64,000 nt of DNA, from sequence record MN648445. One strand, written 5' to 3'. This document shows, piece by piece, positions 10,931 to 14,431 of this stretch. The DNA comes from Escherichia phage FP43. How positions within the stretch are numbered: position 1 is the first letter of the stretch; the number at the start of each line of letters is the position of its first letter. Position numbers and translations under genes: made by a program. A model generated the notes under the pieces. It was not told the DNA's origin, did not search any database, and saw only the letters and a program-made list of their open reading frames with translations.

Positions 10931-11109
10931 TGAACAGAATAGTTAAATGGTTTAAAAGCTGGGACGATGGTGTCGGTCCAGAAGATTGGCTGGATGTTCT
11001 TGAAGAGAATATGGCTAAAGAATTCCAGAAACATGAAGAAAAGCTCGTCGAAGATGAAGGCGAACGTATTGTAAAACTTTATATGGGTGAACCATCGAGG
11101 AAATTATAA
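10930..11109 (+). CDS. small hypothetical protein
   Basis: 59-aa ORF with TAATG start overlap and TAATG overlap with the next gene. Confidence 0.4.
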   Translation: MNRIVKWFKSWDDGVGPEDWLDVLEENMAKEFQKHEEKLVEDEGERIVKLYMGEPSRKL

Positions 11110-11573
11110 TGGATGCTATGCTATTTAAAATGTATTTGCTTGAAGCCAAGTCATTTAAACATATACCAGTGGAAGATAAGACTCCACTAGAAATAGCTAT
11201 TCTCATTAACAAAAGTCTAAATAATCCGCAATATATCGTAGAAGAATTCTGCAAATTGCAGATTCCTAAAGGTTACAAAATTCGTGTAGAGCGAGTTGGA
11301 GCTATTACTCGTTCTAAAAATTCTCCGTTTAGTCTTGAAGAAGGCATAAAGGACTTAGGTTATGAATCCACGGAAAATGCTGTTTATGTGAATCCTGAAA
11401 AGCGTTTAGACTTGTTTGAAAAGCGAGACCATAAGTATTTTGCCAAAAAATACTTTATTACATCATTAGCAGATTTAGTCCATTTGCAACGAGCTATTTG
11501 GAAATTTTTTAAGACAAAAGGTGTAGCGCTAGAAACATTCTCTGAACCTGTTAGTTTTTATCTCGGTGAATAA
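11109..11573 (+). CDS. hypothetical protein
   Basis: 154-aa ORF. Confidence 0.6.
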   Translation: MDAMLFKMYLLEAKSFKHIPVEDKTPLEIAILINKSLNNPQYIVEEFCKLQIPKGYKIRVERVGAITRSKNSPFSLEEGIKDLGYESTENAVYVNPEKRLDLFEKRDHKYFAKKYFITSLADLVHLQRAIWKFFKTKGVALETFSEPVSFYLGE

Positions 11574-11754
11574 TATGGACCTTATGAGTATGTTTGACGA
11601 GCCTGAAGTTGAGGCTCCTAAAGTGCATCGTAGTGAACTTGTTGATGAACTAGATAGTATTATACAACGACACGGCTTTAGTTTACCTGTCGAAGCCCTG
11701 AAAGACCTTGCCTCTTATTATGACGACCCTCCACCATGGAGTCCTTGGAAATGA
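11566..11754 (+). CDS. hypothetical protein
   Basis: 62-aa acidic ORF overlapping the upstream stop. Confidence 0.45.
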   Translation: MNNMDLMSMFDEPEVEAPKVHRSELVDELDSIIQRHGFSLPVEALKDLASYYDDPPPWSPWK

Positions 11755-11914
11755 AAGATAAATTGAAAGAGAAATTCTTACTAGAAATCAAGGAAAAAGA
11801 CTTTGAGACATGGTATCGAATGGTGAAAGGGTTGACATTGCTTTTTAAAGCGTCCTTATTCATGTTAGAACAACCTGGCCCAGATGGTCCTTTAGTAGGA
11901 AAGCTTAAAAAGTA

Positions 11915-11943
11915 GTTTACATTCCCTCCTCTCGTGTTATGAT
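11915..11943 (+). promoter_or_regulatory. early-type promoter
   Basis: GTTTACATT and TATGAT 17 nt apart upstream of ORF 11971. Confidence 0.5.
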
Positions 11944-11970: not shown

Positions 11971-12552
11971 ATGACATGTCAATCTGAACTTCAAGAACGT
12001 GAATACCTAACAAATCTGATTGATAGCAAATTCACCCGCCAAGAACAAAACATTCTCTGGGCTTGCACCGATTCTAAGGAAGACCCGGATTTCCACTATG
12101 AATTAGACCATCTTGTTCGTAAGCATATGACTTCTACAGTACCAGTAGAACTCTACCGTGGTGTAACTCCAGAAGAAGTAGAACGTCTTTCTCTTCTTTC
12201 TGTTGGATGCCATTGGTCTCCTGGACGAGTAACATCGTTCACAACTGATTTCAGTACAGCTCGTCAATTCTCCGGGAGATGGGAATATCAGACGTACACT
12301 ATTCTTAGTCTCAGGAATGCTCCATTCATTTTTGATTACTACCAAAACATGGTTAACATTGTACTTGCCGGAAAGAATCCTAAGCATGTTATGGAAGAAA
12401 CGCGTGTTGATGTCCTAGATATGATTGAATCTGAACAAGAGTACATGGTCTCAGGTATCTCTAGATTTGAGATTGTGGAAATTGAAGACTTAGAATATGA
12501 CCCTTTATCTCGACTATACAAAATCATTCATTTAAAAATGTTGAATTTTTAG
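11971..12552 (+). CDS. modB: ModA/ModB-family ADP-ribosyltransferase (first of two paralogs)
   Basis: R (LYRGV), S-x-S-like (SFTTDFS) and E-x-E (ESEQEYM) motif order; paralogous to the next ORF; synteny soc..mod..srd..dda. Confidence 0.55.
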   Translation: MTCQSELQEREYLTNLIDSKFTRQEQNILWACTDSKEDPDFHYELDHLVRKHMTSTVPVELYRGVTPEEVERLSLLSVGCHWSPGRVTSFTTDFSTARQFSGRWEYQTYTILSLRNAPFIFDYYQNMVNIVLAGKNPKHVMEETRVDVLDMIESEQEYMVSGISRFEIVEIEDLEYDPLSRLYKIIHLKMLNF

Positions 12553-12609: not shown

Positions 12610-13218
12610 ATGTTTATGCCGTATAATGAATGTGAAATTGAGGAAATGGTTCGCCGTGCTCAATGCCCTGAATATCAAGATGAATTGCAGTACGAAATTG
12701 ATAGTCAATTCAACGATAATGAACAAAGCATCCTTTGGCAGTGTATGGAAAACAAGCCAGACTGTATTCAACAGGAGTTAAGTTCAATCGTTCGTAGAAA
12801 TTGGACGTCTTCAGTTCCTGAGACAATGTATCGTGGAATCTCTAAGAAAACTATGGCCACACTCGACGATAAAGATGTTGGTAGTATTATTAAATTTGAT
12901 AGAGTAATGAGCTTTAGTCCAGTGTTCGGTGTAGCACGTAACTTCGCTTCATATAATTTTTATGGAACATTTAATATGTTCTGCATCAAAGATGCACCAT
13001 TTGCTTTCAACTTCCGTGAACATATGCTTAACATGATTCTGGCTGCGCCATCTTGTGAGTTCAATGGAGCTTTCCCTGAAGCGACAAGACGGTCTAATGC
13101 TAGACTTATATCTGACGAATGCGAATTTATGCTCCCTATAGGGACTACACTGCGTGTAGATTCTATTATTCAAGATGGACGTTATACAATCTGGAATCTG
13201 TCTATTGTCGGTTACTGA
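12610..13218 (+). CDS. modA: ModA/ModB-family ADP-ribosyltransferase (second paralog)
   Basis: shares ILW-x-C, MYRGIS, SFSP and ECEFM motifs with the preceding ORF. Confidence 0.55.
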   Translation: MFMPYNECEIEEMVRRAQCPEYQDELQYEIDSQFNDNEQSILWQCMENKPDCIQQELSSIVRRNWTSSVPETMYRGISKKTMATLDDKDVGSIIKFDRVMSFSPVFGVARNFASYNFYGTFNMFCIKDAPFAFNFREHMLNMILAAPSCEFNGAFPEATRRSNARLISDECEFMLPIGTTLRVDSIIQDGRYTIWNLSIVGY

Positions 13219-13292: not shown

Positions 13293-13321
13293 GTGTACAC
13301 TACCTGAGGGCATGATATTAT
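13293..13321 (+). promoter_or_regulatory. early-type promoter
   Basis: GTGTACAC and GATATTATAGACCTATCA cassette. Confidence 0.5.
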
Positions 13322-13370: not shown

Positions 13371-14117
13371 ATGTTATCAAATAATAAAATTAACAAAATA
13401 AATCGTCGTCTTGACCACACCAGAGCTTCTGCGAAGAGACGCTCTAAGGATTTTAACTTAGACTTTAATTACCTTAAAAACATTCTTGATCAAAAGGTCT
13501 GCGCTTACTCAGGTGAATCTTTCAATAACTCTGTTGAAGGTGAGAAATTATCCTTAGAACGTTTTAATAACGATATCGGCTACATTAAAGGTAATGTTAT
13601 CCCAGTTAAGAAAAAATATAACACGGCTCGTTCTGATTTAACATTAGAAGAACTTATTGAGAAACGTGATGCCATTGCAAGGCGTATCGCTAATCCTTCT
13701 GCCCGTAAAGTAGAGAAACTTAATCTCGACGAGAAGAAATGGGCCCAAATTAAAAAGGTTTATGGTACTATTTTAAAAATCCGAGCAAAACGTGAAAATC
13801 GTGTTAAGCATATGGCGAACATGATGAAAAATCAACCTTTATCTAACGAATCTAAACTTAGAATTGTTGCTTTGAAAGCACGCATTAATGGCTCACATCA
13901 AGCAGAAGGCCATGAACTTACTAAACTCAACGTTCTTCTTAAAGGCTCTGACTGGAAAACTAAAACTAAATTAACTGACGCTGAATCGCTTTTCGATACA
14001 TATGATAAAGTTATCCAAGGTCTGCGACGTTTTGAAAAGATTGGTTTCATTGGTAAATTAAAATTGAAACGTGGCTTACCACTTAGCGCATCATTATTCC
14101 AACTGATTAAAGGTTAA
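13371..14117 (+). CDS. srd: Srd-position protein with degenerate HNH-like N-terminal motif
   Basis: 248 aa, very basic; CAYSGESF ... LSLERFNNDIGYIKGNVIPV resembles an HNH finger with catalytic residues replaced; sits before dda.1/dda as srd does in T4. Confidence 0.45.
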   Translation: MLSNNKINKINRRLDHTRASAKRRSKDFNLDFNYLKNILDQKVCAYSGESFNNSVEGEKLSLERFNNDIGYIKGNVIPVKKKYNTARSDLTLEELIEKRDAIARRIANPSARKVEKLNLDEKKWAQIKKVYGTILKIRAKRENRVKHMANMMKNQPLSNESKLRIVALKARINGSHQAEGHELTKLNVLLKGSDWKTKTKLTDAESLFDTYDKVIQGLRRFEKIGFIGKLKLKRGLPLSASLFQLIKG

Positions 14118-14119
14118 TT

Positions 14120-14431
14120 ATGGTTTATGTATATGCAATAGTTTATCGAGATATGGAAGGATTTACTGTCCCGGTTCCACTTGATGAGCATCGTCCTGCA
14201 GTATTTTTTAGAAAGGATATTGCAGATAAAGTTTTCGATACTTTGAAAACACAGTATAAAACAGATTTAAAAATGGGAGTTCTAAGAATGGTCGAAACTC
14301 CGCGTAAGTTCTGGTTTAATAAGCTTGAAATGAAACACGTTAAACTAGATGCGGAGACGCAAAGATTGTATCAACGAATTCTGGACACAGGCCGTATTGT
14401 TAGTATTCCAATTGCAGGGACTTTACGATGA
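14120..14431 (+). CDS. Dda.1-like protein
   Basis: 103-aa ORF immediately upstream of, and overlapping, dda. Confidence 0.55.
   Translation: MVYVYAIVYRDMEGFTVPVPLDEHRPAVFFRKDIADKVFDTLKTQYKTDLKMGVLRMVETPRKFWFNKLEMKHVKLDAETQRLYQRILDTGRIVSIPIAGTLR

Follow-up and report, generated by a model that had tools for sequence, protein, structure and literature searches.

In the papers that cite the original work, Srd of phage T4 is described as binding the N-terminal, catalytic half of RNase E and as stimulating the degradation of host mRNA (Qi et al. 2015, cited in PMC13232886, PMC7430671, PMC4980113). RapZ, an E. coli adaptor that activates RNase E, also binds the catalytic half of the enzyme and promotes cleavage (PMC7430671). 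The analogy with Srd is functional only: RapZ has no sequence or fold relation to Srd and acts specifically on the sRNA GlmZ, in contrast to the broad action of Srd on host mRNAs.

The other system of comparison is PacI (PDB 3ldy/3m7k), a homodimeric DNA restriction enzyme. PacI belongs to group 20 of the His-Me fingers and is a recognised exception to the catalytic histidine (Jablonska et al. 2017; PMC5714182). This histidine is absent and is replaced, as general base or nucleophile, by a tyrosine of the omega loop; the single metal has one Asp and one Asn as ligands (PMC5714182, PMC4081073, PMC3384342). In the systematic classification of His-Me proteins, the PacI group comprises 78 viral (giant-virus), 4 bacterial and 6 eukaryotic members, and Srd is not included (PMC5714182).

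The window analysed here is a stretch of 64,000 nucleotides of Escherichia phage FP43. An ORF of its plus strand, with an ATG at 13371 and a TAA at 14115-14117 (Table 1), encodes a protein that matches the Srd profile phrog_1400 of PHROG over amino acids 3-248 (E = 2e-99). The tblastn search with this protein matched 1167 phage records. Identity is 100% to its counterpart in Escherichia phage vB_EcoM_SA79RD, 98.8% to that of HX01 (a Mosigvirus) and 68%, over amino acids 2-248, to T4 Srd. The genes around it encode, in this order, Mrh, two ModA/ModB-like ADP-ribosyltransferases, Srd, the product of an ORF at the dda.1 position (phrog_1079), the Dda helicase and the DexA exonuclease; the same order is annotated in HX01. 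The ORF is the Srd orthologue of an RB69/HX01-like Mosigvirus. The first-pass annotation, made from the sequence alone, had placed it at the position that srd occupies in T4, and the profile match, the identity to T4 Srd and the HX01 gene order all bear this out. T4 Srd shares with it the 248-aa architecture, the locus between modA/modB and dda.1/dda and the motif CAYSG...SLERF.N..GY..GNV...K.KYN..R (P0011); it differs in about 32% of residues, mostly in the helical middle region, and in nothing structural.

Several features of the neighbourhood were recorded. The Mrh gene is at 11109-11573. Directly upstream of srd lie the two ADP-ribosyltransferase genes, which are adjacent and paralogous (11971-12552 and 12610-13218, plus strand; phrog_832, E about 1e-38 each). 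A 59-aa ORF at 11736-11915 is the counterpart of D299_gp172 of HX01 (702-881 of the locus record), also a 59-aa ORF, which carries the RefSeq label 'molybdenum ABC transporter'; this label is almost certainly an annotation artefact. On the other side of srd, gene packing is tight: the 103-aa ORF at the dda.1 position has its ATG two bases after the TAA of srd (span 14115-14122), and its stop overlaps the start of dda (ATGA at 14428-14431), an overlap that suggests translational coupling. The putative promoter upstream of srd is preceded by an A-rich tract and looks like an early promoter of the T4 type. It would fit with an early expression of srd, which is reported for the T4 gene; such sites were no commoner in the promoter scan than in shuffled sequences, so that this candidate is weak evidence. 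No further copy of the N-terminal domain of Srd was found elsewhere within the 64-kb window.

Table 1. Features of srd and of its product. Positions are those of the window; aa, amino acids of Srd; AF2, AlphaFold2.
Feature	Positions	Strand	Description and basis
Promoter-like sequence (putative), TGTACA-16-TATTAT with upstream TG	13294..13321	+	50 nt 5' of the srd start
srd gene	13371..14117	+	248 aa plus stop; ORF, phrog_1400, tblastn, synteny
N-terminal domain, PacI-type His-Me (HNH) finger by profile and model, aa 4-107	13380..13691	+	AF2, Foldseek, PDB profile search, hhalign
Two N-terminal helices, aa 4-23 and 32-39	13380..13487	+	Predicted secondary structure; part of the conserved domain
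CAYSG, aa 44-48, remnant of the first zinc-knuckle CxxC	13500..13514	+	Aligns with CGYCG of PacI and CHYCG of Gme HNH
Beta strand 1, aa 60-64 (SLER), ending in E63-R64	13548..13562	+	AF2; aligned to GVDR of PacI and TMDH of Gme HNH
Omega loop, aa 65-75 (FNNDIGYIKGN), with Y71 and N75	13563..13595	+	Y71 aligns with the tyrosine of the PacI loop EGY
Beta strand 2 (aa 76-80) and core alpha helix (aa 81-89), with N84 and R87	13596..13637	+	AF2; aligned to CFICNRIK of PacI
C-terminal helical half, aa 121-248	13731..14114	+	AF2: hairpin 121-191, helix 203-222; conserved tail KLKRGLPLSASLFQLIKG

The motif on which the first-pass annotation was based is present exactly as it was described, with its substitutions. 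CAYSGESF corresponds to aa 44-51 (nt 13500-13523) and EGEKLSLERFNNDIGYIKGNVIPV to aa 56-79 (nt 13536-13607). Compared with the canonical HNH motif (C-x-x-C ... D-H ... N ... C-x-x-C-N/H), S47 stands at the second Cys and E63-R64 at the Asp-His. This had been read as a module derived from an HNH nuclease that had lost catalysis, to be checked by profile search and structure prediction. Both were carried out: the HNH relationship was found by the former and the beta-beta-alpha fold, retained, by the latter, so that the derivation holds; the loss of catalysis does not follow from what was found.

The relationship is visible at the level of profiles. The Pfam scan of Srd gave noise only, without any HNH match for Srd itself, and a phmmer search of the PDB with the single Srd sequence gave only spurious matches to ribosomal protein L17, in the helical region. 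In PHROG, aa 9-106 match phrog_3322 'endonuclease' (E = 4e-18), phrog_3118 'HNH endonuclease' (9e-15) and phrog_1035 'endonuclease VII' (8e-11). The alignment of Srd orthologues (A1) provided the profile for an exhaustive HMMER search, which retrieved 4361 representative proteins at E <= 0.001. Apart from full-length Srd-like proteins, these matches cover only profile positions about 5-100: the N-terminal domain of the Srd type lies at either end, N- or C-terminal, of unrelated proteins or occurs as 2-4 tandem copies. Relatives with 2-4 PacI-type domains in tandem include P0088 (852 aa), P0119, P0127, P0131, P0145, P0148, P0151, P0170 and others, some of them with an HTH; they may be equivalent to the members that His-Me group 20 has in giant viruses. 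Pfam gave no HNH call for ten distant multi-domain or tandem-repeat relatives.

The profile of a second alignment, which gathers 40 diverse copies of the domain (A2), was compared with all PDB sequences. Its best match is PacI (3ldy; E = 1.5e-4 over 77 profile positions), followed by the Gme HNH nicking endonuclease (4h9d; E = 0.047) and then by HNH regions of Cas9. The hhalign probability of A2 with the PacI segment is 94.5%. A database search with A2 added a large set of phage and metagenome proteins, about 180 aa in length, that have a full CxxC...CxxC zinc knuckle. Their motif is AKRRG.E..LT...F.....C.YCG...YNGIDR.DN.KGY...NVVPCC..CN.AK., in which Asp-Arg and Gly-Tyr are present despite the zinc knuckle. 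One of these zinc-containing proteins (P0186) is above the gathering threshold of the Pfam HNH family PF01844 (34 bits vs 21.4).

These zinc-containing proteins (CxYCG...GIDRxDNxKGY..NVVPCCxxCN) are the closest intermediates to Srd. They share with it the N-terminal AKRRG..F.L helix, the D/E-R, the GY and both Asn; unlike Srd, they keep CxxC...CxxC, usually have another N-terminal extension (an HTH in some) and lack the C-terminal half of Srd. The profile built from Srd only aligns with this set at 99.5% probability (hhalign; E = 2e-22, 87 columns), and the set aligns in turn with PacI at 96.6% and with Gme HNH at 95.6%. The Srd-only profile aligns directly with Gme HNH at 85.5%, with CAYSGE paired with CHYCGE, SLER with TMDH and GNVIPVKQKYN with GNVVPACKECN. 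Its hhalign probability with the single PacI sequence is only 19%, over a short segment; the link to PacI therefore runs through the zinc-containing intermediates. An HMM built from the zinc-containing proteins only gives 50.2 bits for the N-terminal domain of Srd and 10.1 bits for the best of 2000 shuffles. The HNH resemblance of this domain is far above chance.

The AlphaFold2 model of full-length Srd (pLDDT 86.9) has helices at 4-23 and 32-39, strands at 60-64 and 76-80, helices at 81-87 and 92-107, a disordered linker at about 108-120 and long helices thereafter. In a Foldseek search of the PDB with this model, coiled-coil proteins dominate and PacI is at rank 12. Because coiled coils swamped the full-length search, the N-terminal domain was modelled separately with the A2 alignment (pLDDT 91.8); a beta-beta-alpha core is predicted (strands 60-64 and 76-80, helix 81-89). 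Ranks 1-4 of the PDB matches of this model are all HNH enzymes, i.e. three 4h9d chains (probability 0.99-1.00, E about 0.01) and PacI 3ldy (probability 0.98, TMq 0.54, rmsd 4.1 A over 92 columns). HNH domains of Cas9 and T4 endonuclease VII rank lower; the E-values are modest (0.01 to 0.12) and the ranking is consistent. The fold of Gme HNH, Cas9 HNH and T4 endonuclease VII is the same as that predicted for the N-terminal domain of Srd. Among predicted viral structures, 93 matches were found at E <= 0.001, mostly uncharacterised phage proteins or proteins called 'anti-sigma factor' by label transfer; a few, in giant viruses, are labelled HNH or restriction endonucleases. The N-terminal helices, in which A21, R24, F28 and L30 are conserved, align with residues 30-60 of PacI, upstream of its CxxC. 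On profiles and modelled fold together, aa ~4-107 of Srd are assigned as a true member of the HNH/His-Me finger superfamily, in its PacI-like branch.

PacI and Srd have in common the D/E-R...GY...N...N..K/R motif in register, the N-terminal helix and the beta-beta-alpha fold. PacI differs in its two Cys4 zinc sites, in an insertion that precedes strand 1, in an Asp as metal ligand (Glu in Srd), in the lack of a C-terminal helical half and in its action on DNA as a homodimer; Srd has one Cys left, no zinc site, a helical extension of 140 aa and a role in host takeover linked to RNase E.

The HMMER alignment pairs E63-R64 of Srd with D92-R93 of PacI, G70 with G99, Y71 with Y100, N75 with N104 and N84 with N113; R87 is at the position of K116. 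Y100, with which Y71 pairs, is the sole tyrosine of the PacI omega loop. In Srd, strand 1 ends in R64 and not in the catalytic histidine (general base); the metal-ligand Asn of the core helix (N84) and the structural Asn before strand 2 (N75) are both present. Canonical HNH enzymes have an Asp-His general base and no loop tyrosine, whereas Srd has Glu-Arg and Tyr71. Both marks of the PacI branch are found, i.e. Asp/Glu-Arg where canonical enzymes have Asp-His, and the tyrosine of the omega loop. Judged by position in the alignments, Srd keeps the full PacI-type catalytic set: E63, R64, Y71, N75 and N84, plus R87.

The invariant columns of the A2 alignment (40 copies) are C44, R64, Y71, N75 and N84. 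Residue counts were taken over 192 domain instances. Tyr71 and Asn75 are found in all 192, Asn84 in 191 and Arg64 in 190; position 63 is Glu or Asp in all but one, and position 87 is, with few exceptions, Arg or Lys. All these active-site residues are also present in the Srd-like proteins from phages of Acinetobacter and Shewanella. In the most distant orthologues examined (33-51% tblastn identity over the N-terminal domain), Y71 and the metal-ligand positions are still fixed. As the whole clade, including the zinc-containing members and active PacI, has D/E-R, the Glu-Arg of Srd does not imply lost catalysis, and since the PacI-type residue set is complete, the finger is not degenerate. The earlier claim that the replacement of Asp-His by Glu-Arg means loss of catalysis is not supported by this distribution: D/E-R is native to the PacI clade, and the 192 copies show little or no variation at E63, R64, Y71, N75 and N84. 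Loss of catalysis in Srd is not favoured by the conservation pattern.

The part of the finger that is truly degenerate is the zinc knuckle. The Cys4 zinc-binding motifs of the PacI branch are absent from Srd; one Cys of four is left (C44), with S47, K81 and Y83 at the partner positions. Position 44 is Cys in 190 of the 192 domain instances, position 47 is Ser or Thr in all but two, position 81 is variable and position 83 is hydrophobic. As only C44 of the four Cys is kept, Srd belongs to a zinc-less sub-branch. In Srd, and generally in the zinc-less branch, this lone Cys (13500-13502) is invariant though its three zinc-knuckle partners have given way to other residues. The active site may have changed when the structural zinc was lost.

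The C-terminal half gave only generic coiled-coil matches in the full-length Foldseek search. In its tail, residues K231, G235, P237, L238, S241, F243 and L245 are conserved (A1 alignment). Distant Srd-like genes are found near dda in Acinetobacter phage DLP1 (2950-3903 of the locus record) and Shewanella phage Thanatos-2 (2896-3675). Their products keep the motif of the N-terminal domain and a similar C-terminal tail (GLPLSTPTYKLLK, GLSKDASLLDLLK) and have middle regions that differ in length and sequence; with the ends kept and the middle diverged, constraint appears to fall on the two ends. The C-terminal half is presumed to be the protein-interaction part, with RNase E, from the literature on T4, as candidate partner.

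The reading favoured here, with moderate confidence, is that of a protein of two modules, a PacI-type HNH head with an intact site, which would engage RNA, and a helical half, which would contact RNase E. The helical C-terminal half would dock on the catalytic N-terminal half of the host RNase E. The HNH head would engage nucleic acid, most likely RNA, beside RNase E by means of its intact metal- and phosphate-binding site, and early in infection the RNase E-dependent decay of host mRNA would thereby increase. The homology, fold, conservation and synteny that enter into this reading come from the present analysis, and the binding and stimulation of RNase E from the literature; what we infer is how the work is shared between the halves and that the active site is used. 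Nucleic-acid binding by the head is plausible, and the conservation argues that the PacI-type site is in use. Qi et al. reportedly found that the RNAs tested were not destabilised by Srd in RNase E-defective cells and that one substrate still needed RppH. Given this RNase E dependence, cleavage by Srd alone would not be sufficient; as the mRNA effect requires RNase E, a free-standing nuclease activity is also unnecessary as an explanation.

That dependence bears on two other readings. An autonomous, active Tyr-dependent HNH nuclease, which would cut host DNA or RNA and stimulate RNase E only as a consequence of its cuts, would account for the complete PacI-type catalytic set, and many of the relatives, as small stand-alone phage proteins or fusions of HTH and HNH, are of a type usually taken for free-standing endonucleases; the reported need for RNase E and, with one substrate, for RppH speaks against it, and it is held to be improbable. 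To our knowledge, neither a nuclease activity of Srd nor a nuclease phenotype of srd has been reported, which counts against an autonomous nuclease and in favour of a catalytically dead HNH relic that serves only as a DNA/RNA- or protein-binding module, like SMAD MH1. Such a relic is unlikely, although less so; the canonical general-base histidine is indeed absent (R64), three of the four zinc cysteines are gone, the mRNA-destabilising effect of Srd depends on RNase E as the citing papers describe it (Qi 2015), and the recruitment of inactive His-Me fingers for binding is documented (SMAD MH1 and Enpp; PMC5714182). The change from His to Arg, however, is ancestral to the whole PacI-like clade, active PacI included, and is not specific to Srd. 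SMAD MH1 and Enpp, which give the precedent for a His-Me finger in a non-nuclease role, have lost both the histidine and the substitute tyrosine, whereas Srd has Y71 and both metal-ligand positions, fixed or nearly so in the 192 copies. Since the known inactive fingers lack both residues and Srd has the tyrosine, its pattern is that of a maintained site and not of a relic.

An older proposal, which reviews and genome papers repeat (PMC3594737, table; PMC3606486) and which most GenBank and PHROG entries carry as a label, makes Srd an anti-sigma factor or a sigma-70/sigma-38 decoy that acts on RNA polymerase through a resemblance to RpoD. It is very improbable. In the literature searched, the direct experiments, as far as the citing papers report them, point to RNase E only and not to RNA polymerase. 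The single pairwise BLASTP comparison of Srd with E. coli RpoD gave a best E of 0.11 over 27 residues, the profile-to-sequence hhalign probability is 0.2%, and no sigma or anti-sigma Pfam family matches Srd even at E <= 10; the sigma-70 resemblance is rejected on these comparisons. A further variant combines catalysis with docking. Srd would be an active Tyr-dependent zinc-less HNH endonuclease that cuts or nicks host RNA while docked on RNase E, and the 5'-monophosphate ends so produced (as by His-Me nucleases) would be part of the 'stimulation' of RNase E; only a small probability is given to it. If true, a docked and active Srd would be a phage nuclease that serves as a cofactor and feeds substrates to a host RNase.

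The Srd protein, the HNH superfamily and its PacI branch were already known; what is new is the assignment of the head of Srd to the PacI branch. Nothing in the literature searched describes Srd, T4 Srd included, as an HNH or His-Me protein. The link is partly visible in automated resources, i.e. the PHROG cross-matches and the GenBank label 'putative HNH endonuclease' on a homologue from an Acinetobacter phage.

The assignment of the N-terminal ~105 residues as a PacI-type HNH domain, made from profiles and models, corrects the anti-sigma annotation of more than 1000 phage genes and enlarges the PacI-like group to a family that runs to thousands of uncharacterised phage proteins, most of them zinc-less. 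Srd is among the few phage proteins known to activate, and not to inhibit, RNase E, the central enzyme of bacterial RNA decay. The four or five residues named here may give a lead on whether nucleic-acid binding or cleavage contributes to this stimulation.
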